Positions 41,990 to 50,003 of a stretch of DNA of 64,000 bases are shown here, in pieces. How positions within the stretch are numbered: the stretch's first letter is position 1; the number at the start of each line of letters is the position of its first letter. Both the position numbers and the translations under genes were made by a program. The notes under the pieces were generated by a model, which saw nothing but the letters and a program-made list of their open reading frames with translations, was not told where the DNA came from and did not search any database. This DNA is from Candidatus Methanoperedenaceae archaeon (GTDB lineage: Archaea > Halobacteriota > Methanosarcinia > Methanosarcinales > Methanoperedenaceae), in assembly GCA_963753595.1 (NCBI GenBank), contig CAVWCX010000036.1, positions 32,001-96,000 on the forward strand. The letters run 5' to 3'.

Positions 41990-42016
41990 GTATCGATTAA
42001 ATAAAGTCATCATAGA

Positions 42017-43425
42017 GGTGGTTACCAAGACACCCTTGAAACCATTGGTAGATTTTTTTTCACCTCCTATGTGAGATATGCAACCGAAGAGAGATTTTCT
42101 TTTATACCATGCTGCAATCGTGCAAATGCTACTGCCAGCATGGCAATACAGCATTCTGTCACGTGAAGATCAATATTCTTCATACCTTTACCATTCAAAT
42201 GTACCTCAACTTCAAGGTGATCTTTCAGATAGCTATTGATTCCTTCGTTGCTGTTTCTTCTATGGTAGAGATCAAGAACATTATCGGGACACTCATCATA
42301 TTTATTCATATAGTCATTTCTAAAATACATGGCAACAGGGTCATGAAATCCCTTTTTGACCAGAAATTGCATCTTATATTCTAGAGAAGCATCTTTCTTA
42401 TATTTTGAATCTTGCCAATTTTTTCTATAGAGATAATTAATCTCCTGTTCAGGGGAGTAGATATAGGTTTTTCCATTAAACCTATGCTCGTATTTTACAT
42501 TTTCTCTCCAATCCTTGTCAATATGATAATGTGACATCAAACCCATTTCAACATGAGCAAATGCAATGTTTTTGTTGCTGTTATAACCGCCATCGAACCA
42601 AGTCTCTTCCATGTTCATCCCGGCAGATACTGCTGTCTTTCGGAGCATATCTTCAAGATATTTATCATCATCTTCAGTTCCACCGCATACCTTTTTGGCC
42701 AGAGGAATATTGTGCTCATAATCCATGGTTATTTGTGCTTTGACCATCTTTTTCTTATAATGGCCATTGTATTTTCCATCAGGATCGTTATGTGTCTTGA
42801 TTGGAGTACTATCTGTTCCAGTGCATTTTCCAATTTTTAAATCCAATCGGTTACCAGCTTCTACAACCTTTATACAAAAAAGTTGCATTATAGAATCCAT
42901 CCCCTTATTACCCAGTCTCACTTTTTCGAAATGCCTCAAAGTTTCATGATCTGGAACTATGATATTTTCATCCGGATCAATATTGAAACCCAATTCTAGT
43001 GCCTCATCAGGATGTGTTCTTAAGTTTCTTTCCTCTTTCGTATAATATTTTATTGTCTTTATGTTTCTCCAGATAAATGCCTTTACCATTGCCCTTCTTG
43101 GATAGGTTTCCACTCCTTCTTTAACGGTATAATGCTTGTTGATTTCAGGCATTATCGGATCCAGGTTTAATCCTTCCAGAAATTTTGATGCCCGAACGCT
43201 GTTCTCGGAGGTTGCATCTGCAAACTCTTCATTATTTGCATCGGTTTGACCGATGAATTTGTTCCAATAGCTTTTTATTTGCTTATCAACATTAAACTCC
43301 ATTGTTCATCCCCTCTTTGGAATTTTGTGATTAAAATAATAATGGGGGGATGAATAATATAAATCTTACTGCAAGTATAAAAAATAGTTAAATTTATAAG
43401 GCAAACCTATGAATTGGTAACCACC
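42017..43425 (-). mobile_element. IS4/IS5-like insertion sequence
   Basis: Perfect 12-bp TIR GGTGGTTACCAA/TTGGTAACCACC; 5-bp ATAGA duplication at 42012-42016 and 43426-43430. Confidence 0.9.
42067..43302 (-). CDS. DDE transposase
   Basis: TDSTPI, FDGGY, Y.RR..NEG.N..LK (YREK-like). Confidence 0.88.
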   Translation of the reverse strand: MEFNVDKQIKSYWNKFIGQTDANNEEFADATSENSVRASKFLEGLNLDPIMPEINKHYTVKEGVETYPRRAMVKAFIWRNIKTIKYYTKEERNLRTHPDEALELGFNIDPDENIIVPDHETLRHFEKVRLGNKGMDSIMQLFCIKVVEAGNRLDLKIGKCTGTDSTPIKTHNDPDGKYNGHYKKKMVKAQITMDYEHNIPLAKKVCGGTEDDDKYLEDMLRKTAVSAGMNMEETWFDGGYNSNKNIAFAHVEMGLMSHYHIDKDWRENVKYEHRFNGKTYIYSPEQEINYLYRKNWQDSKYKKDASLEYKMQFLVKKGFHDPVAMYFRNDYMNKYDECPDNVLDLYHRRNSNEGINSYLKDHLEVEVHLNGKGMKNIDLHVTECCIAMLAVAFARLQHGIKENLSSVAYLT

Positions 43426-43503
43426 ATAGAAAATTGATTTTATTTTGAGTTCAATTGTATATACGCAAACCTTATCAGTATTTAAAAAGTATTAGGTTAA
43501 AAC

Positions 43504-44724
43504 GTGATAGAAAAAACCATTGCAGGATTGAAAGTAGGGGACGATCAACCTGTAAGGATAATGGGAGTAATTAATCTCAGCAAAGAGTCTTTTTATAAGA
43601 ATTCTGTGGTTTCACCTGAACATGTACTTGATGCTGCCCTCAAAATGATAGATGAAGGCGCAGATATTATCGATGTTGGGGCGCGTTCGACATGGCCTCT
43701 TGCAGCCAGAATATCAAAAAATGAAGAACGTTCCCGCCTGATACCTGCCGTTCGCGCCCTTGCGGATATTCCCGTGCCGGTTTCAGCGGATACGATGTTT
43801 TCAGACCTTGCAGAAGAAGCGCTTGTTGCCGGTGCGAAGATAATAAACGATGTTAGCGGCTTCACGGCTGATGAAAAAATGATGGACGTGGCTGGAAAAT
43901 ACGCCTGCCCTGTAATATTAATGGCTAGCAATAATATTCCGGGTGATCCGGTGGGAATGGATGCGATAATGGAGTCACTGGGAAGAATAATTGAACGGGC
44001 CGAGAATTGCGGAATTTCACCGGATTCAATTATCATCGACCCGGCTATTGGAAAATGGACTTCACAAAAGCTTCCTGTTTTTGATTATGAGACAATTGAC
44101 AGCATCAATAGACTCAGGATTTTTAATAAACCCATATTAGCAGCAATATCACGAAAATCTTTCATTGGTGAGACATTGAACAAACCCGCAGCTGAAAGGC
44201 TTTATGGAAGCCTTGCAGCAACTGCGATTGCAGTAAGGAACGGGGCGCATATAATACGTACCCATGATGTAGCGCCAACTGTAGATGCAGTCAGGGTCGC
44301 CCAGGCAGCACGGGCAAAGATCCCCAAAGCCAGGTCAGGAACTATTGTTGCACAATTGCTTGATATTAAAAATATTGAGGATTGCCGGGAAGCGATGCTA
44401 TCGATAGGTGTGACCTCAACCGGAAGTCAGATTATGAAGAAAAAAACATTGATTTACAACATTTTGATCAATAATATAAGCACAACCGAAGCATTAATAA
44501 TAAAGCAGGAGATGCTGGCCAGAGGCGGAGATGCAGCCCTTCCGCGCGAAGCTGTTTCTCATGAAATCGAAAAGGTGAGCCTCATTATTTCAGGAACACA
44601 TCTCCAGGTTGAACGTCTTATAAATAAAATCCGCCGCCAGGTAAGAGAGCTTCCCGCAATTGCAGATATGCTGACCGAATTGATGAATAAGAACAATGAT
44701 ACAGTTTTCAGGTATTCAAGATAA
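43504..44724 (+). CDS. folP: Dihydropteroate synthase with extra C-terminal domain resembling dihydropteroate reductase (Prd)
   Basis: MGVINLS.ESF, DVGA.ST, NDVSG, SRKSFIG, IRTHDV; tail LIIKQEMLARGGDAALPR. Confidence 0.9.
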   Translation: MIEKTIAGLKVGDDQPVRIMGVINLSKESFYKNSVVSPEHVLDAALKMIDEGADIIDVGARSTWPLAARISKNEERSRLIPAVRALADIPVPVSADTMFSDLAEEALVAGAKIINDVSGFTADEKMMDVAGKYACPVILMASNNIPGDPVGMDAIMESLGRIIERAENCGISPDSIIIDPAIGKWTSQKLPVFDYETIDSINRLRIFNKPILAAISRKSFIGETLNKPAAERLYGSLAATAIAVRNGAHIIRTHDVAPTVDAVRVAQAARAKIPKARSGTIVAQLLDIKNIEDCREAMLSIGVTSTGSQIMKKKTLIYNILINNISTTEALIIKQEMLARGGDAALPREAVSHEIEKVSLIISGTHLQVERLINKIRRQVRELPAIADMLTELMNKNNDTVFRYSR

Positions 44725-44726
44725 AA

Positions 44727-45353
44727 ATGATAATTTCAAGGCAAAAAGAATTCAATGATATCCTGCAACTGGTCAGTGAGAAAAATATTTTCATAATCGG
44801 CTGCGGAAAATGTGCGAAAAAACAGCGAGTTGGCGGGGAACCTGAAGTCCTTGACATGAAAAAAAAACTTGAAGCTTCAGGAAAAAATATTACCGGATGG
44901 ACGGTTTTAAGTTCTGCCTGCAGCATCAGTTCCTGGGAGGAGGTCCTGTCACAGAATCCCGGTATTAAAAAGGCTGGCGCACTTCTGGTAATGTCATGCG
45001 GGGGAGGCGTTTCTGTGATATCAGGATTTGCGGGGCTGCAGGTATATCCTGCTCTTGATACGGAATCCCTCGGAGGAGTTTGCTGTAATGAAGTGGTAAC
45101 AGAACAATGCGGCATGTGCGGGGATTGCACGATATGGTTATACGGCGGAATTTGTCCAGTCATCCGGTGCCCAAAAAGTCTTTTAAATGGGCCATGCGGC
45201 GGCGCAGTTGAGGGAAAATGCGAAGTGGATGAACGCTTATGCGCATGGGATAAGATATTTGAAAGGTTAAAAGAGCTGGGGAAACTTGAAAATATTGAAA
45301 ATATACATGAGCCAAAAGACCACAGGAAAAAAGGCAGGGTGAAAAAAACTTGA
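44727..45353 (+). CDS. metV: Methylenetetrahydrofolate reductase small subunit
   Basis: GCGKCA, CGMCGDC, GICPVIRCPKSLLNGPCGG, CAW. Confidence 0.9.
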   Translation: MIISRQKEFNDILQLVSEKNIFIIGCGKCAKKQRVGGEPEVLDMKKKLEASGKNITGWTVLSSACSISSWEEVLSQNPGIKKAGALLVMSCGGGVSVISGFAGLQVYPALDTESLGGVCCNEVVTEQCGMCGDCTIWLYGGICPVIRCPKSLLNGPCGGAVEGKCEVDERLCAWDKIFERLKELGKLENIENIHEPKDHRKKGRVKKT

Positions 45354-46228
45354 GCTTCATTTCAAAATTACGATCGGGAAAATTCATGATCACAGCAGAG
45401 ATCAGCCCCCCAAAAGGGACTGATACATCGCGAATGTTACGAGATGCTACCCTGTTAAAAGATATAGCTGATGCAGTAAATGTGACTGATAACCAGAGGG
45501 CTGTGATGAGAATGAGTCCTCTTGCAGCATGCAGTATCCTCCGGGGGAATGGATTGGAAACCATTATGCATATCACTTGCAGGGACAGGAACAGGCTTGC
45601 TCTCCAGTCTGAACTTATCGGGGCCTGGGCTCTTGGAATAAGAAATATACTCGTTATGTCAGGAGACCATCCTTCAAAAGGCGACCATGAGGGAGCAAAA
45701 CCTGTTTATGATCTTGACTCTGTGCAGCTTCTCGCAATGTTACGGAAATTGAACCAGGGAGTAGATCATTCAGGAAATAAACTGGATGGGATGACGGATT
45801 TCTGCGTGGGTGCTGTAACAAATACCGGATTAAATGAAGCAGCACTTATTAAGCTTAAGAAAAAAATAAAGGCGGGAGCAGTTTTTCTTCAAACACAGGC
45901 TGTATTTGATGTAAAACGTTTTTCTGAATTTATTGAAAAAACCGAGGAAATCAGATCAAAACAATCAAAAAAAATAAAGATTATTGCCGGTATAATACCT
46001 TTAAGATCAGAAAGGAGTGCGCTTTTTCTTAACAAGGTTCCCGGCATAAGAGTTCCTGATGATATGATCAAACAAATAAAAGATGCAAATAATCCTGAAA
46101 TCGAAGGCATGAGAATTACCGCAAATATAATAAAAGAATTACGGACAATGTGCGACGGCGTCCATATTATGCCGGTCGGGAACCACGAAAATACAAAAAA
46201 GTTGCTCGAAATGGCAGGTTTAATATGA
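45350..46228 (+). CDS. metF: Methylenetetrahydrofolate reductase
   Basis: TAEISPPKG, NVTDN, TCRDRNR..LQS, GDH, QTQ, GVHIM. Confidence 0.93.
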   Translation: MSFISKLRSGKFMITAEISPPKGTDTSRMLRDATLLKDIADAVNVTDNQRAVMRMSPLAACSILRGNGLETIMHITCRDRNRLALQSELIGAWALGIRNILVMSGDHPSKGDHEGAKPVYDLDSVQLLAMLRKLNQGVDHSGNKLDGMTDFCVGAVTNTGLNEAALIKLKKKIKAGAVFLQTQAVFDVKRFSEFIEKTEEIRSKQSKKIKIIAGIIPLRSERSALFLNKVPGIRVPDDMIKQIKDANNPEIEGMRITANIIKELRTMCDGVHIMPVGNHENTKKLLEMAGLI

Positions 46229-47517
46229 AGAATATGCAGACTCAGATTGAACATGCAAGGGATGGAATAGCAACACAACAAATGGAAGAGGTCGCAAGGA
46301 CTGAAAATATCAATATCGATACCCTCATTTCGCGTATTTCAAATGGAAGTATCGTAATAATGAACCGGGGAAATATTGGAGATAATAATAGGGGTAGTGT
46401 ATCTGGTAATGTATCTGTCGGCATCGGTAAAGGTCTGTCAACAAAAGTCAATGTGAATTTAGGCACATCTACCTTAAAGATCGATCCTGATGAAGAGGTA
46501 AAAAAAGCCCGTATCGCCCAGATGTATGGCGCTGACACGATAACTGATCTTTCCATGGGCGGGAATATTTCCTATATCCGAAAGATGATAATGGAGAATA
46601 CAACTCTTCCTTTGACCACTGTCCCGATTTACCAGGCTGCGGCCGAAAAAGGTCTTGGGAATATCGATTGCGATGATATCATCAAGAACTTAAAACAGCA
46701 GGCTGATGAAGGTATCAGTTCTTTTGTGCTTCATTGCATCGATAAAAAGACACTCGATATAATGAAAAAAGGAAAACGAATAATGGGTGTTGTATCAAAA
46801 GGAGGATCAATAACAAGCGCCTATATGATGCTTAATAAATGTGAAAATCCTTTTATTTCGAATTTTGAGGAAGTCCTGGAGATCCTTAGAATGCATGATA
46901 TTGTGCTCTCACTTGGCAATACCATGCGAAGCGGATGCATTCACGATAAACGGGATAAAGCACAAATTGCAGAGATAAAGCAGAATGTAAAACTTGCAAA
47001 AATCGCAAATGACGCAGGTATCCAGGTAATAATAGAAGGAATGGGCGGGCATGTCGGCGCTGACAGGATAGCTGAGTATGTCAGGTTCCATAAAAAACAA
47101 TCCGGTCATCCTCTCTTTGTTGCCGGGCCGCTTCCTACTGATGTTGCAGTCGGGTATGATCATATTGCAGGAAGCGTCGGAGCAAGCCTGGCAAGCGGGG
47201 CTGGTGCTGATTACCTGTGTTATATCACTCCATCAGAGCACCTTGGTCTTCCAGGCCCCGAACAGGTGCGGGAAGGACTCATCGCTTTTAAGATAGCGGC
47301 ACATATTGGCGATTCCATCAAATACGGCCCTCATGAAAGAGACAGGGATCTTGCTAAAAAAAGGGCAAATCTTGACTGGGAAGGGCAGATGGAATATGCT
47401 ATTGATAGTGACAGGGCAAGGGAATTATCGCCAAAAGAAGGGCCGTGTACCATGTGCGGGGATTTCTGCGCAATTAAAATAATGAAGGAGTTTGGAACAT
47501 GCAATTATTCGGGATAA
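46225..47517 (+). CDS. ThiC/Bza-family radical SAM enzyme with divergent active-site motifs
   Basis: TKVNVNLGTS, DLS.GG, VPIYQ, GYDHI, CYITPSEHLGLP, CTMCGDFC; start at the ATGA overlap. Confidence 0.85.
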   Translation: MKNMQTQIEHARDGIATQQMEEVARTENINIDTLISRISNGSIVIMNRGNIGDNNRGSVSGNVSVGIGKGLSTKVNVNLGTSTLKIDPDEEVKKARIAQMYGADTITDLSMGGNISYIRKMIMENTTLPLTTVPIYQAAAEKGLGNIDCDDIIKNLKQQADEGISSFVLHCIDKKTLDIMKKGKRIMGVVSKGGSITSAYMMLNKCENPFISNFEEVLEILRMHDIVLSLGNTMRSGCIHDKRDKAQIAEIKQNVKLAKIANDAGIQVIIEGMGGHVGADRIAEYVRFHKKQSGHPLFVAGPLPTDVAVGYDHIAGSVGASLASGAGADYLCYITPSEHLGLPGPEQVREGLIAFKIAAHIGDSIKYGPHERDRDLAKKRANLDWEGQMEYAIDSDRARELSPKEGPCTMCGDFCAIKIMKEFGTCNYSG

Positions 47518-48266
47518 AAACACAGCTGATAAAACCGGGAGACGATTTTGCGCAAATACTTATCGAGTCCCTTACTTTGGCGGGAATAAAGCCGCAGGAC
47601 AATGATATTTTCGTCCTCGCAGAATCAGCGGTTGCCACCGCAGAAGGCGGGATCGTGAAATTAGACACAGTAAAACCTTCTAAAAAAGCGATCGAACTTT
47701 CAAAAATATATCAAAATGACCCGCGGAAAATGGAGCTGATAATGAGGGAATCTGATGAGATCCTTGGAGGGATACCAGGTGTGGTCGTGACCATTACAAA
47801 AGGTGTGCTCTCGCCAAGCGCAGGGATCGATAATTCAAATGCTCCTGAGGGGTATGTGGTTCTGCTTCCGCATGATCCGACAAAGAGTGCAATTGATATA
47901 AGGAAGAAACTAATGGAAGAATACAATTGCAATATTGCTGTTATAGTTGGCGATAGCAGGACACAGCCCTTGCGCCTTGGATGCGTTGGGATCGCACTTG
48001 GATGCGCGGGTATTGAACCTGTGGAGGATATCCGGGGGCGCAAAGACCTTTTCGGAAAACCGCTTTTAATTACAAGGCGGGCTACCGCTGATAATCTTGT
48101 ATCGGCAGCGCAGATTATCATGGGTGAAGCCGACGAAAGCACTCCGGCAGTGCTTATCAGGGATGCGCCTGCTGTATTCATAGATGGCAGCGTGGATATC
48201 CCGCAGATACCCAGAGTTGAATGCCTTTATTTTGCTTGTTTTGATAAAACCGGAAATAACCGTTAA
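47499..48266 (+). CDS. CofE/FolC2-family gamma-glutamyl ligase
   Basis: IKPGDD, PSAGIDNSN, LLP.DP..SA, DSRTQPLRLG, DLFG, MGEADESTP. Confidence 0.88.
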   Translation: MQLFGIKTQLIKPGDDFAQILIESLTLAGIKPQDNDIFVLAESAVATAEGGIVKLDTVKPSKKAIELSKIYQNDPRKMELIMRESDEILGGIPGVVVTITKGVLSPSAGIDNSNAPEGYVVLLPHDPTKSAIDIRKKLMEEYNCNIAVIVGDSRTQPLRLGCVGIALGCAGIEPVEDIRGRKDLFGKPLLITRRATADNLVSAAQIIMGEADESTPAVLIRDAPAVFIDGSVDIPQIPRVECLYFACFDKTGNNR

Positions 48267-48365
48267 AAACGTTATATTTTTAATATACAGAAACATTAAA
48301 TGAAGAATAAGATAAATTAAATGAAGATAAGATAAAATATCTGAGAAAAGAATATTGAGGGAATT

Positions 48366-49550
48366 ATGGCATTCGTTCAAACATTAATGAATTCTAAGAA
48401 ACATATTGATGAAGCTGATCTTGAAATCGACATTGGGAAAAATATAGCTTTGCGGCCAAGACTTGAGAATATGCAGTTTTTGGAAAGTGGAGTTGAAGCA
48501 AACCTTTACCGCATGCTTTATTCCCAGGGTCCCGGAAATGGTACAGCCCTTTTCATGCCTTTTGACCAGAAAAGTTCCGAACACGGCCCTGGTCATGAAT
48601 TCCTGTGGGAAAACGATGGGGCAGGCGCAAATGAAATAAATCTCCGGGGAAAAGGCTCGGCAGACATGCGATCCATTGCAGAATTGGTGAATCGTGGCAA
48701 TTTTTCAGGATATGTCCTGCACCCTGGCAATGTAAGGCAGTTCAAGCACTTATTCAGGCCTGATATTCCTTTGATATACAAGATAGATGGACACATTTCG
48801 CAGCCACAGAGCGCCGGATTTATGTCAACTGTGGGCACAATTGAAGAAGCGCTTAAATACGGTGCTTCCGCTATCGGTTTGACAATCTACCCTGGCGGTG
48901 AGCATGTCAAATCTGACTTTGAACGAGCAGCAGAAATTATCAGGAAAGCTCATGATGCGGGTCTTGTTGCTGTGGTCTGGGCTTATGCGAGAGGGCTTGG
49001 GTTAGATGATAAAACTAAATTTAAAGACAAAGAGGGTGAATTCCAGGGCGTGACCCAGGCCGACAGCCTGTACTGGACACATTATGCTGTTTCGATAGCC
49101 TCAGGATTACTGGGCGCAGATATTGTCAAAACCAAATATCCGGCAAAGGTAAAGCCTGACAACCGAAGAGCATACGATTCTCATATAGAAGGTCTTGCAA
49201 AAAAGAACTCAAGCATGATCGCTTACAAATACCTCGAACCAAAAAATGCAGAAACCACATTGACAGCCGGGCAGGAAATATTCAGGGCAAGCATTGTTGT
49301 GCAGGCTGCTCCTCATTCTATTGTTATTTTCTCAGGCGGGCCTAAACTGCCGGGTAATCCCACACAGAGCCTGGTGAAACAAACGGAAATCGTGATGAAA
49401 GCAGGTGCTGAAGGCGGTATTTATGGACGAAACATATGGGGATTGCCAGTCAAAGAGGGATTAGAAGCAGCCCGTGCGGTGAATGAGGTTATCAGTAAAC
49501 CGGAATTTCACAGGAAGCTGATACAGGCGAGGTTTGCAGGATACCAATAA
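48366..49550 (+). CDS. DhnA/FbaB-type class I aldolase
   Basis: PFDQ..EHGP, WAYARG, GADIVKTKYP, SGG, GRNIW. Confidence 0.85.
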   Translation: MAFVQTLMNSKKHIDEADLEIDIGKNIALRPRLENMQFLESGVEANLYRMLYSQGPGNGTALFMPFDQKSSEHGPGHEFLWENDGAGANEINLRGKGSADMRSIAELVNRGNFSGYVLHPGNVRQFKHLFRPDIPLIYKIDGHISQPQSAGFMSTVGTIEEALKYGASAIGLTIYPGGEHVKSDFERAAEIIRKAHDAGLVAVVWAYARGLGLDDKTKFKDKEGEFQGVTQADSLYWTHYAVSIASGLLGADIVKTKYPAKVKPDNRRAYDSHIEGLAKKNSSMIAYKYLEPKNAETTLTAGQEIFRASIVVQAAPHSIVIFSGGPKLPGNPTQSLVKQTEIVMKAGAEGGIYGRNIWGLPVKEGLEAARAVNEVISKPEFHRKLIQARFAGYQ

Positions 49551-49570
49551 TTATAGTTAAGAACCTAATT

Positions 49571-49670
49571 TAAATGAACATGAAAAAAACAACGAACTAA
49601 TACGAACTGAAACGAACTCCAGATAGCGTGAGTTCGTTTCAGTTCGTACGTGTTAGTTGTTAATTTTTTT
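49571..49670. repeat. ~100-bp palindromic REP/MITE-like element, copy 1
   Basis: Perfect 19-bp arms TACGAACTGAAACGAACTC (49601-49619) and its reverse complement (49630-49648). Confidence 0.85.
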
Positions 49671-49711
49671 AATAGAATAACAAAAAACAAAAAATGGTTT
49701 AAATTTAAAGT

Positions 49712-49858
49712 TCAAAAACCATTTTTAGAATAAAACCGCATTCCAAAATGTTCACACTGGCCGGCTTCGCAATCCTCCTCTTGCCGCCTGTCACAATGTG
49801 AAATCGTTAGAAGTCTTATGGCCATATCATGTTTTTGGCAGTATGGTGAAACTATCAT
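49712..49858 (-). CDS. 48-aa Cys/His-rich small protein
   Basis: AAGGAGG RBS; MIVSPYCQKHDMAIRLLTISHCDRRQEEDCEAGQCEHFGMRFYSKNGF. Confidence 0.65.
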   Translation of the reverse strand: MIVSPYCQKHDMAIRLLTISHCDRRQEEDCEAGQCEHFGMRFYSKNGF

Positions 49859-50003
49859 TTTATTCCTCCTTTTATGTCGGCGATTTTTATTAATCGTCAA
49901 CAATAAGTAAATAATTCCTATGGTATATATTATTAACCCATAATTATATAATTGTAATTATCATCATCATCATACGATAACAATAGAATTAAATGGATAA
50001 GCG

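Follow-up and report, generated by a model that had tools for sequence, protein, structure and literature searches.

A distinct clade of ThiC-family radical-SAM enzymes in archaeal folate operons and its candidate role in aminobenzoate supply

The folate-type operon and its gene products

The window analyzed here, a 64-kb stretch of DNA from a Candidatus Methanoperedenaceae archaeon, contains one tightly packed operon at positions 43504–48266, which consists of folP, metV, metF, a ThiC-family gene (thiC3), and a CofE-like gene (Table 1). The folP stop codon is separated from the metV ATG by a 2-nt gap (AA), and the remaining junctions are overlaps of 4 nt between metV and metF (TTGA), 4 nt between metF and thiC3 (ATGA), and 19 nt between thiC3 and the cofE-like gene. 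This five-gene arrangement, described in the initial annotation, was borne out by a check of the open reading frames and junctions. A longer thiC3 reading frame with a GTG start at 46150 is dispensable, because position 1 of the Pfam model matches residue 6 of the ATG form.

Table 1. Features of the operon, with positions in the window.
Feature	Coordinates	Strand	Description
folP	43504..44724	+	dihydropteroate synthase, long form, 406 aa; stop TAA
FolP C-terminal extension	44314..44721	+	residues 271–406, about 136 aa; unknown family
metV	44727..45353	+	small Cys-rich partner subunit of MetF; PF12225 (MetV-type domain) 5.8e-30
metF	45350..46228	+	methylene-tetrahydrofolate reductase; TTG start; PF02219 MTHFR 4.8e-44
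thiC3	46225..47517	+	ThiC-family radical-SAM enzyme, 430 aa; ATG start; PF01964 ThiC_Rad_SAM
cofE-like	47499..48266	+	gamma-glutamyl ligase, FolC2-type; ATG start; PF01996 F420_ligase, 263 bits

The dihydropteroate synthase (DHPS) domain of FolP comprises residues about 18–270, matches PF00809 at 1.2e-56 and TIGR01496 with 216.4 bits (cut-off 162.6), and is the sole DHPS match in the genome. Its C-terminal extension had no Pfam match at E ≤ 0.01, and a weak language-model lead (0.85) pointed to clusters of proteins of ~121 aa with the automatic name ‘dihydropteroate synthase’; FolP of Methanosarcinales and of families f21 and f12 (about 400–430 aa) has the extension, and FolP of Methanomicrobiales (about 270 aa) lacks it. 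At every Methanoperedens-type locus metV adjoins metF, and passages of PMC9012536 state that every ANME MetF gene neighbors MetV. The same passages describe a tetrahydrofolate cluster of Methanosarcinaceae and ANME-2a/b/d/3 that comprises MetF, MetV, FolP, FolD, and GlyA, as well as PurN, and ascribe to it an anabolic, H4F-dependent C1 metabolism. The FolP–MetV–MetF part of this cluster is found in the window, whereas none of folD, glyA, and purN adjoins the operon there. ThiC is mentioned nowhere in that paper, and the supplementary data of that work may list ThiC, FolC2, and CofE genes.

The genome encodes a second CofE (contig C11), 37% identical to the operon ligase, and the CofE tree separates the folate-cluster copies from the true CofE copies, each in a clade with an SH-aLRT support of 100. 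The cofE-like gene adjoins folP in Methanomicrobiales, f21, and f12, and its product is a candidate dihydrofolate/folylpolyglutamate synthase of the FolC2 type; folC (TIGR01499) was found in none of five genomes. The folate cluster of Chlamydia likewise has no FolC and contains a CofE-family ligase clustered with folP, and there too no pabA/B/C is present, the candidate pABA source being a non-canonical gene of the cluster. Chlamydial FolC2 (the CofE homologue CT611) complements an E. coli folC mutant, according to excerpts of PMC1971073. The chlamydial pABA candidate, as described in excerpts, is a PqqC-like protein, whereas a radical-SAM enzyme occupies this place here. Furthermore, the operon ligase scores 126 against TIGR04132 (‘putative folate metabolism gamma-glutamate ligase’), under the cut-off of 350, and therefore forms a branch of its own within the CofE family.

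Phylogeny and active site of ThiC3

ThiC3 shares the fold of ThiC (structures 3EPM/3EPN and 4S25–4S29) over its full length, matching PF01964 with 499.9 bits over model positions 1–420 of 420, and its best PDB matches are Caulobacter ThiC (1.9e-71) and Arabidopsis ThiC (7.4e-70). It scores 493 against the NCBIfam ThiC equivalog NF009895, above the cut-off of 410, and 444.5 against TIGR00190, under the cut-off of 460, and the clade is labeled ‘phosphomethylpyrimidine synthase’ in all database sources. Among representatives at 50% identity, the neighborhood of ThiC3 comprises just two full-length clusters (60% and 57% identity), and the next is at 45%. A careful maximum-likelihood tree with 79 rows places the 30 rows of ThiC3 in a single clade (support 100/100), apart from ThiC and BzaF, and the 16 BzaF rows, which include bacterial genes verified by their context inside cobU-cobT-cobS-cobC-cbiA...cbiMNQO clusters, form a separate clade (100/99) that also contains an archaeal orthologue from this very genome. 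On these sequence grounds, ThiC3 almost certainly represents a third, distinct clade of ThiC-family radical-SAM enzymes that was previously unseparated; it differs from both the thiamin pyrimidine synthase (ThiC) and the 5-hydroxybenzimidazole synthase (BzaF) and groups with neither in the tree, an outcome in favor of the initial annotation.

Three ThiC-family paralogues are encoded in this genome (G000), as in 5 of 5 Methanomicrobiales genomes checked, and the two companions of ThiC3, which are 42% and 41% identical to it, comprise the separate canonical thiC that had been sought and the BzaF orthologue. A canonical ThiC with the GDGMRPG motif accompanies ThiC3 in all four genomes checked from families f19, f21, and f12, and in every genome checked for paralogues, most of which have BzaF too. 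ThiC3 is no replacement for canonical ThiC.

The motifs HCI (170), SKGG (191), GNTMRSG (231), EGMGGH (271), and CTMCGDFC (408), all of those quoted initially, were found in the 430-aa protein. The corresponding substrate-site motifs of the two paralogues are IHTG/SRGG/GNGMRAG/EGPGH and IHAG/SRGG/GDGMRPG/EGPGH, and the contrasts drawn in the initial annotation are therefore real. ThiC3 keeps N78, E271, R235, H276, H339, and C332 (N219, E413, R377, H417, H481, and C474 in Caulobacter ThiC, respectively) together with the C-terminal CX2CX4C, retaining the Fe–S motif, the two His metal ligands, and the ribose–phosphate contacts; passages of PMC11117688 describe the roles of Caulobacter N219 and E413, which contact the ribose, and of C474. 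For the residue hydrogen-bonded to N3 of AIR, passages of PMC12661338 give Asp in the case of ThiC and Asn in that of BzaF. ThiC3 has Asn at this position, as in BzaF, and the Lys of its SKGG motif is also shared with bacterial BzaF.

ThiC3-only residues, defined as at least 90% conserved in 30 ThiC3 sequences and compared with 16 BzaF and 19 ThiC sequences, are M46, R48, T131, S165, S166, V168, T197, T233, S236, G274, F298, A300, G316, Y330, and L352. A one-residue insertion at G274 makes the loop read EGxGGH in ThiC3, whereas it reads EGPGH in both ThiC and BzaF, and GNTMRSG replaces the GNG[LIM]RAG of BzaF. About 14 clade-specific substitutions lie around the base pocket, where ThiC and BzaF are both invariant, among them, in Caulobacter numbering, G272T, G375T, P415G with the insertion, Y440F, and L442A.

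Association of ThiC3 with folate genes

The context of thiC3 is folate genes, unlike the thiamin genes of ThiC. In 30 of 30 genus-level loci thiC3 lies directly downstream of metF, and the cofE-like gene comes next in 19 of 29. The order folP-metV-(0–7 kb)-metF-thiC3-cofE-like occurs in 12 of the 19 ThiC3 loci sampled across Methanosarcinales, and linkage to metF in 32 of 69 named ThiC3 loci. Another arrangement is found in two unrelated small-genome families: thiC3-purH-folP-cofE-like in f12 and, in f21, a gene for an HMPTM-type radical SAM protein (with an N-terminal PF23545 domain), glyA, folD, thiC3, purH (AICARFT), folP, and the cofE-like gene. This gene order is independent of that of Methanosarcinales, and PurN as well as PurH is encoded within ThiC3 folate clusters. 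Bacterial BzaF, in contrast, sits in cob/cbi clusters, and no cobamide gene stands beside thiC3 in the loci whose neighbors were read. The folate linkage is thus conserved in two gene orders but does not extend to Methanomicrobiales: none of 31 Methanomicrobiales and Hydrothermarchaeota loci examined has a folate gene within 6 kb of thiC3, and thiC3 is also unlinked to folate genes in genus g15, in Methanomethylovorans-type loci, and in the two f7 loci and the one f19 locus examined.

In a phylum sample of 401 genomes, ThiC3 was found in 82 and folP in 234. All 82 ThiC3 genomes have folP, a count that overstates the evidence because related genomes are non-independent, and ThiC3 occurs in none of the 167 genomes without folP. 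Within Methanosarcinales, ThiC3 is present in 129 of 200 genomes (6/28 in g15, 4/8 in g23, and 0/6 in g22) and in none of the 28 genomes of two folP-less families sampled; three ThiC3-positive genomes of the order sample (G060, G084, and G086), fragmented assemblies of 140–390 contigs, gave no folP match. Among the 151 Methanomicrobiales genomes, 52 have ThiC3 and all 52 have folP, but co-occurrence is uninformative there because almost every genome has folP (148 of 151). The co-occurrence check found the ThiC3 clade together with both folP and the CofE-like ligase. The patchy distribution of ThiC3 is typical of a salvageable precursor. In 2004, Buchenau and Thauer reportedly found the growth of Methanosarcina barkeri to depend on folic acid or pABA, and the best 120 clusters for a Methanosarcina-type ThiC3 query include no protein of M. 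barkeri, M. mazei, or M. thermophila. In methanogenic and methanotrophic Halobacteriota, ThiC3 probably functions in connection with the folate module.

Candidate role and alternative explanations

The initial annotation regarded the aminobenzoate supply as one open step of the pathway. The step itself does appear open, as pabB (TIGR00553) scored above the cut-off in none of 201 Methanosarcinales genomes, none of which has more than one chorismate-binding gene. It is not the sole missing step, because a FolA-type DHFR was also found in none of five genomes. Judged from context and residues, ThiC3 is a candidate chorismate-independent and oxygen-independent supplier of pABA or its immediate precursor, a tentative assignment whose chance falls a little short of even. 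In this pathway, 6-hydroxymethyl-dihydropterin diphosphate would be common to methanopterin synthesis, ThiC3 would supply the aminobenzoate, and FolP would join both halves into dihydropteroate; the CofE-like ligase, standing in for the absent FolC, would then attach glutamate, and the cofactor would be used by MetVF, FolD, GlyA, PurN, and PurH. As substrate, the enzyme would take a 5-phosphoribosyl compound, presumably of the same kind as that of BzaF, for example AIR or something closely analogous, and the product would be pABA. AIR is a purine-pathway intermediate and the known substrate of the ThiC family, and since PurN and PurH are encoded in the clusters, the association of thiC3 could possibly reflect AIR supply instead of folate synthesis. 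We know of no ThiC-family enzyme whose product is a para-substituted aminobenzoate, and balancing the atoms between AIR and pABA, as far as reasoning goes, is awkward, a BzaF-type closure yielding an ortho-diamine pattern.

ThiC3 may instead act in the folate module and yet form another aromatic or heterocyclic product from AIR, for example, to modify the archaeal ‘folate’ in a lineage-specific way or to give it an alternative aryl moiety, or as a regulator or by-product of the PurN/PurH flux. The same folate linkage and co-occurrence would be expected, a substrate resembling AIR is suggested by the ribose/phosphate contacts together with the BzaF-like Asn and Lys, and the pathway of the neighboring PurH and PurN brackets AIR; to our knowledge, no report has given the chemical structure of the folate of these archaea. 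However, the conserved DHPS motifs of FolP are identical between ThiC3-positive and ThiC3-negative genomes, so that FolP looks isofunctional in both and the ordinary substrate pABA is favored over an analogue. Ordinary pABA or folic acid also reportedly suffices for M. barkeri, which makes an exotic aryl moiety unnecessary, and radical chemistry is not obviously needed by any other unfilled folate step. Such a product is plausible but rather unlikely.

It is improbable that ThiC3 is a second HMP-P synthase, a thiamin isozyme co-expressed with folate and purine genes for AIR only, even though its NF009895 score, the name of its clade, and the kept catalytic E271, C332, and cluster motif agree with this, and excerpts of PMC11117688 report that HMP-P activity is partly kept in the D383N mutant of AtThiC. 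A canonical ThiC is already present in every ThiC3 genome examined, the TIGR00190 score, the separate clade, and the substitutions at otherwise invariant positions argue against it, and the 167 folP-less genomes of the phylum sample have no ThiC3, though thiamin is needed there too. Synthesis of a benzimidazole (5-hydroxybenzimidazole or a variant) as a cobamide lower ligand used with methyl-tetrahydrofolate, the alternative raised in the initial annotation, is very improbable. The BzaF-type Asn and Lys and the position right after metF in Methanosarcinales are consistent with it, as is the lack of a BzaF-type paralogue in f19, f21, and f12, where ThiC3 is therefore the only Asn-bearing ThiC homologue. 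However, this reading is weakened because an orthologue of context-verified BzaF is already present in G000 and in 5 of 5 Methanomicrobiales genomes, and because ThiC3 persists where neither BzaF nor archaeal CobT was found: CobT (TIGR00303) was detected in G000 and in none of the four BzaF-less f19, f21, and f12 genomes, which keep thiC3 without a sign of benzimidazole base activation, and CobS is present in all five. The loci read place no cobamide gene beside thiC3, and 22 of the 28 genomes of the Methanosarcina-like genus g15 have no ThiC3; Methanosarcina is a classical producer of the 5-hydroxybenzimidazolyl cobamide.

The initial interpretation as a whole is partly supported, in its favor being the clade, the context, the co-occurrence, and the absence of pabB, except that pABA is not the only gap. 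A supply of pABA or its precursor for folate is thus the favored, if tentative, role, and ThiC3 is the best candidate for the missing aminobenzoate step of folate in these archaea.

The folate operon and its divergent ThiC homologue

The observation made in the initial annotation, a folate-type operon containing a divergent ThiC-family radical-SAM gene (here thiC3; its product and clade, ThiC3), is real. The packing of the operon was re-read in the window as reported, with a 2-nt gap followed by overlaps of 4, 4, and 19 nt; every quoted motif lies where it had been placed in the 430-aa ThiC homologue, and the families of all five genes are upheld by Pfam and NCBIfam. The best protein matches are records from Candidatus Methanoperedens and "Methanosarcinales archaeon" at 75–91% identity, which marks the host as an ANME-2d-like archaeon.

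Features of the folate operon, its flanks, and two genes at related loci
Feature	Position	Strand	Remark
DDE transposase gene	42067-43302	-	PF01609; 200 nt upstream of folP
folP	43504-44724	+	first of five head-to-tail genes
FolP C-terminal extension	44314-44721		residues 271-406, ~136 aa
metV	44727-45353	+	2-nt gap after folP
metF	45350-46228	+	TTGA overlap with metV
thiC3 (ThiC-family gene, 430 aa)	46225-47517	+	ATGA overlap with metF
cofE-like (CofE-family gene)	47499-48266	+	19-nt overlap with thiC3
DhnA-type class I aldolase gene, divergent	48366-49550	+	394 aa, PF01791; 99 nt downstream of the operon
DUF1638 gene (genome G186)	L053:6121-6933	-	PF07796, 9e-38
Radical-SAM gene with "HMPTM N-terminal zinc ribbon" domain (genome G380)	L178:11327-12856	-	PF23545

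The transposase gene, which has weak IS1182/IS4-like matches, stands between ftsZ and the folate operon. On the other flank, the aldolase was weighed as an operon member because GriI-type aldolases reportedly yield aminohydroxybenzoates. NCBIfam gives it at most 110 against a cut-off of 277, and blastp finds no paralogue of it in the window's own genome (G000). Only two loci, those of the closest relatives (L008 and L009), have it after the operon; it is missing from 20 of 20 order-wide loci, and it is probably not part of the folate operon. In an Rfam scan of positions 42000-50000, nothing reached a gathering score, and hence no riboswitch was detected there.

G000 (92% complete, 37 contigs) encodes three PF01964 proteins. 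The paralogue with the motifs GDGMRPG/SRGG/EGPGH scores about 600–618 bits on both ThiC equivalog models and is the product of the separate canonical thiC whose presence the initial annotation had proposed to check; taken together with the second paralogue, with GNGMRAG/SRGG/EGPGH, the scores on the two models span 598–618 bits. ThiC3, with GNTMRSG/SKGG/EGMGGH, is 42% and 41% identical to these two. It covers the whole of the PF01964 model (499.9 bits, positions 1-420 of 420) and carries the C-terminal cluster motif CTMCGDFC (CX2CX4C) at residue 408, and it scores above the cut-off of one ThiC equivalog model (NF009895, 493 against 410), below that of the other (TIGR00190, 444.5 against 460), and below that of the BzaB model (TIGR04386, 369.5 against 700). 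Among 1.84 billion representative proteins, only two full-length 50%-identity clusters are close to it (60% and 57% identity), the next standing at 45%. The window protein has 430 aa, compared with 406–416 aa in most orthologues whose start is called cleanly; in the alignment of the three paralogues, about nine extra residues fall at residues 47-62 or so, beside the clade-specific M46 and R48.

The ThiC3 clade was already set apart in a quick tree of 110 rows, comprising the three paralogues, 14 locus orthologues, and 93 of 150 representatives (those of 380–680 aa). In a careful maximum-likelihood tree of 79 rows, built from 29 hand-picked members of the 150 representatives together with locus-derived sequences, ThiC3 forms a clade of 30 rows with support of 100/100, and the canonical ThiC copies of the same genomes lie elsewhere. 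A BzaF clade of 16 rows (100/99), which does not contain ThiC3, unites bacterial genes, three of which were seen in cob clusters, with the GNGMRAG paralogue of G000 and its counterpart in each of five Methanomicrobiales genomes. The NCBIfam BzaB model failed as a label for ThiC-like clades, as none of 10 representatives reached its cut-off of 700, and BzaF was therefore labelled by cobamide-cluster context: several of the bacterial homologues, with the motifs GNG[LI]RAG/SKGG/EGPGH, sit within cobU-cobT-cobS-cobC-cbiA...cbiMNQO-cbiC-cbiD clusters. One bacterial GDGLRPG copy adjoins thiD. The initial annotation had made its proposal depend on ThiC3 grouping with neither bona fide ThiC nor BzaF, and this is what the tree shows, since ThiC3 and BzaF form separate clades. 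The ThiC3 clade is new as a functional unit. Further deep ThiC-like clades also lack the canonical GDG/SRGG/EGPGH motifs (library representatives P0162, P0199, P0139, P0153, P0171, P0178, P0193, and P0197; one example reads GSALRSG/SKGG), and among those scanned, namely all but P0139 and P0153, only P0178 passes an NCBIfam ThiC or BzaB cut-off (433 against 410). The ThiC family appears to hold more functions than those of ThiC, BzaA/B/F, and ThiC3.

When ThiC3 is aligned by hand with Caulobacter ThiC, it is found to retain N219, E413, R377, H417, H481, and C474 (Caulobacter numbering) as well as the cluster cysteines. N219 and E413 contact the ribose 3'- and 2'-hydroxyls in ThiC, and a role of C474 is likewise described, in the available text of PMC11117688. 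The Asp of the ThiC GDG motif (D383 in AtThiC, D374 in CcThiC) hydrogen-bonds N3 of AIR and is replaced by Asn in BzaF, according to the accessible portions of PMC11117688 and PMC12661338 for the former and of PMC12661338 for the latter. ThiC3 has Asn232 (within GNTMRSG) at this position, unlike ThiC and like BzaF, and the Lys of SKGG is common to ThiC3 and bacterial BzaF. A comparison of 30 ThiC3, 16 BzaF, and 19 ThiC sequences identifies residues found in ThiC3 only (Caulobacter equivalents in brackets): M46, R48, T131 (G272), S165, S166, V168, T197, T233 (G375), S236 (P378), G274 with a one-residue insertion (P415), F298 (Y440), A300 (L442), G316, Y330, and L352. With the location of the pocket taken from the motifs, the radical, metal, and ribose-phosphate apparatus of ThiC3 is conserved and its base pocket seems to be rebuilt, as would be expected if the product, or the aromatic portion of the substrate, had changed.

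Distribution of ThiC3 and its linkage to folate genes

In a sample of 200 Methanosarcinales genomes plus G000, ThiC3 was scored manually as present where the best E was <=1e-130 or where a fragment at a contig end had at least 56% identity; 129 of the 200 have it, distributed over the families as 48/52 (f1), 18/20 (f2), 0/27 (f3), 58/94 (f4), 0/1 (f5), and 5/6 (f6). Family f4 is patchy by genus, with ThiC3 in 6/28 genomes of g15, 0/6 of g22, 4/8 of g23, and 23/25 of g20. The same 200 genomes include 168 with folP, which is absent from f3 and f5 altogether. The co-occurrence with folP that the initial annotation had singled out as a test was borne out: of 401 genomes sampled across the phylum, 82 (13 families) have ThiC3 and 234 have folP, and folP accompanies ThiC3 in 82/82 cases while ThiC3 is found in 0/167 folP-less genomes, counts that, the relatives not being independent, mean "never without folP in about a dozen families" and are not a statistic. 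In the Methanosarcinales sample, three fragmented assemblies with ThiC3 (G060, G084, and G086, with 390, 140, and 220 contigs) gave no folP match; in G086, thiC3 is itself a contig-end fragment. Families with a long fused FolP (about 800–1000 aa), which we take to be of the haloarchaeal type, are without ThiC3. Among 151 Methanomicrobiales genomes, ThiC3 is present in 52 and folP in 148, including 52/52 of those with ThiC3, and Hydrothermarchaeota and Altarchaeum MAGs with ThiC3-like genes have folP too. The readable Methanomicrobiales loci (L164-L177) show a glyA-folD-folP-cofE-like cluster, and tetrahydrofolate genes appear to be general in this order. Genes resembling cofC, cofG, and purC/S/Q, as judged by their N-termini, often lie close to the folP cluster at these loci.

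The tie of ThiC3 to the folate module is well supported. Within the window's genus, metV, metF, and thiC3 are contiguous in 30/30 loci, and the cofE-like gene follows within the 1.5-kb flank in 19/29. Of 19 ThiC3 loci sampled across the order, 12 have the arrangement folP-metV-[0 to about 7 kb of inserted genes]-metF-thiC3-cofE-like; another is without the cofE-like gene, one has thiC3-cofE-like only, and five are unlinked. Linkage to metF is seen in 32/69 ThiC3 loci of named genomes, the 32 belonging to Methanococcoides, Methanolobus, Methanohalophilus, Methanosarcinaceae MAGs, and Methanoperedens. One large g15 genome, G186, has purN-glyA-folD...folP-metV-metF-DUF1638-cofE-like, the DUF1638 gene filling the usual thiC3 slot between metF and the cofE-like gene, and thiC3 stands elsewhere, beside IS200/IS605-type genes.

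A second gene order is found in two families with genomes of about 1 Mb. Family f21 combines an HMPTM-type radical-SAM gene (N-terminal domain PF23545), glyA, folD, thiC3, purH (AICARFT), folP, and the cofE-like gene, with a glyA-purN-thiC3-purH-folP variant, and family f12 has thiC3-purH-folP-cofE-like; no metVF is present at the thiC3 clusters of either. Given two distinct gene orders, the association of thiC3 with folate genes has survived, or arisen, in both. The gene that heads the f21 cluster is presumably the methanopterin pterin-methylase, which would place a methanopterin gene and folate genes in one cluster. The linkage to folate genes, on whose conservation the initial annotation had staked its proposal, holds in these two gene orders and fails in Methanomicrobiales and Hydrothermarchaeota, where no folate gene lies within 6 kb of thiC3 at 31/31 loci. 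The recurrent neighbours there are housekeeping genes common only to close relatives, and the neighbourhoods of unlinked thiC3, screened for a possible partner (an aldehyde dehydrogenase, for example), showed only lineage-specific housekeeping synteny.

FolP, the CofE-like ligase, and missing steps

FolP scores 216.4 bits on TIGR01496, above the equivalog cut-off of 162.6, and its DHPS motifs are conserved across 32 aligned sequences. Its C-terminal extension has no Pfam match; the one lead is a language-model similarity, weak at 0.85, to free-standing proteins of ~121 aa that carry the automatic name "dihydropteroate synthase". Long FolP proteins (about 400–430 aa) occur in Methanosarcinales, f21, and f12, and the FolP of Methanomicrobiales has 270 aa.

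The pabB gene, whose presence in the genome had likewise been put forward as a check, is above the TIGR00553 cut-off in 0/201 Methanosarcinales genomes; these never contain more than one chorismate-binding gene, which is taken to be TrpE. Neither FolC (TIGR01499) nor a FolA-type DHFR was found in any of five genomes. The cofE-like protein scores 263 bits on PF01996 and 126 on TIGR04132 (cut-off 350), and the cofE-like and true CofE clades (17 and 6 rows) are separated with an SH-aLRT of 100 each. G000 and five Methanomicrobiales genomes each encode one of either kind, and the cofE-like gene adjoins folP in three lineages. The ligase beside folP is routinely annotated as an F420 ligase. CT611, a Chlamydia CofE homologue, complements an E. 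coli folC mutant according to the available text of PMC1971073; complementation was shown for CT611, whereas glutamylation of dihydropteroate or folate by the window's ligase is putative. The cofE-like gene would be the obvious candidate for a FolC substitute, leaving aminobenzoate supply and dihydrofolate reduction as the steps without a gene. A radical-SAM rearrangement enzyme plausibly fits only the former.

Candidate functions of ThiC3

The best available hypothesis, reached by elimination and from context, is that ThiC3 is a pABA synthase. That it is instead a redundant ThiC is unlikely, as a canonical copy is always present in the genomes checked, and the distribution of ThiC3 follows that of folP, whereas thiamin is needed universally. 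Benzimidazole synthesis, the alternative raised in the initial annotation, is unlikely as well, since BzaF orthologues already exist in G000 and in 5/5 Methanomicrobiales genomes, and thiC3 is kept in f19, f21, and f12 genomes that are without BzaF and archaeal CobT (0/4, with G000 positive; CobS in 5/5), lying within the folate cluster in f21 and f12. In the four genomes concerned (G380, G423, G360, and G370; 1.0–1.5 Mb), CobS was found and neither a BzaF-type paralogue nor archaeal CobT (TIGR00303) was, which suggests that they salvage a ready-made lower ligand or whole corrinoids. No cob or cbi gene was seen beside thiC3 at the loci whose neighbours were read, and the linked loci have folate genes.

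It is less likely that ThiC3 serves an unusual aryl moiety of folate. FolP motifs do not differ between ThiC3-positive and ThiC3-negative genomes (18+5 against 6+3 sequences), which argues for one common aryl substrate, and M. barkeri is satisfied by ordinary compounds: judging by the title of Buchenau & Thauer 2004, it reportedly grows on pABA or folic acid. When a Methanosarcina-type ThiC3 is searched, named matches with at least 80% identity belong to M. horonobensis and Methanosarcina sp. MAGs, and the 120 clusters listed include no protein of M. barkeri, M. mazei, or M. thermophila. This is consistent with pABA auxotrophy going together with a lack of ThiC3, and is no proof of it. Pooled in thiC3 clusters are also the purine enzymes PurN and PurH, and AIR is a purine intermediate. 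We know of no chemical precedent for pABA formation by a ThiC-family enzyme; a ring built from AIR in the manner of BzaF would not be para-aminobenzoate.

A speculative and rather improbable form of the pABA synthase hypothesis is that ThiC3 clips the ribose by radical-SAM chemistry from the methanopterin intermediate beta-RFA-P, not from AIR. This compound, 4-(beta-D-ribofuranosyl)aminobenzene 5'-phosphate, is an aminophenyl C-ribotide resembling AIR in shape; its existence and its origin from 4-hydroxybenzoate are reportedly known from the work of R. H. White. Modelled on the early ThiC steps described in the available text of PMC11117688, the reaction would begin with abstraction of the C5' hydrogen, proceed through scission of the C4'-O bond, and end with beta-scission of the C1'-C2' bond, so that C1' would stay on the ring as 4-aminobenzaldehyde or 4-aminobenzoate. 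If true, this would constitute a third, oxygen- and chorismate-independent pABA route, in which folate synthesis branches off the methanopterin pathway, and would account both for the pABA need of ThiC3-less Methanosarcina despite abundant methanopterin and for the kept ribose and phosphate contacts alongside a rebuilt base pocket.

In the methanogens and anaerobic methane oxidisers that contain folate, tetrahydrofolate serves purine, thymidylate, and methyl-group anabolism. Auxotrophy for pABA is established in some of these species, and M. barkeri, M. thermophila TM-1, and Methanomicrobium mobile are among the archaea that require it. The pABA source of the folate-containing archaea is a gap for which ThiC3 is a concrete and widespread candidate gene, and the cultivable Methanosarcina that are open to genetics probably include hosts for gain- as well as loss-of-function work. 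No paper tying a ThiC paralogue to folate or pABA was listed in full-text searches of the literature outside subscription journals and supplementary files. PMC9012536 describes the H4F cluster, and ThiC has no occurrence in its available text, although its supplementary tables, like those of other papers, might list the gene. Whatever the function of ThiC3, the name "phosphomethylpyrimidine synthase ThiC" is probably wrong for several hundred database entries (570 clusters at E<=1e-150), and prototrophy for thiamin or cobamides, where it is predicted from numbers of ThiC-family matches, will therefore be misjudged. If ThiC3 does supply pABA, the ThiC radical-rearrangement family would gain a third product class beside the thiamin pyrimidine and the B12 benzimidazole, pABA would have a third biological route, and the gene would be a marker from which the vitamin dependence of methanogen and ANME communities could be predicted.
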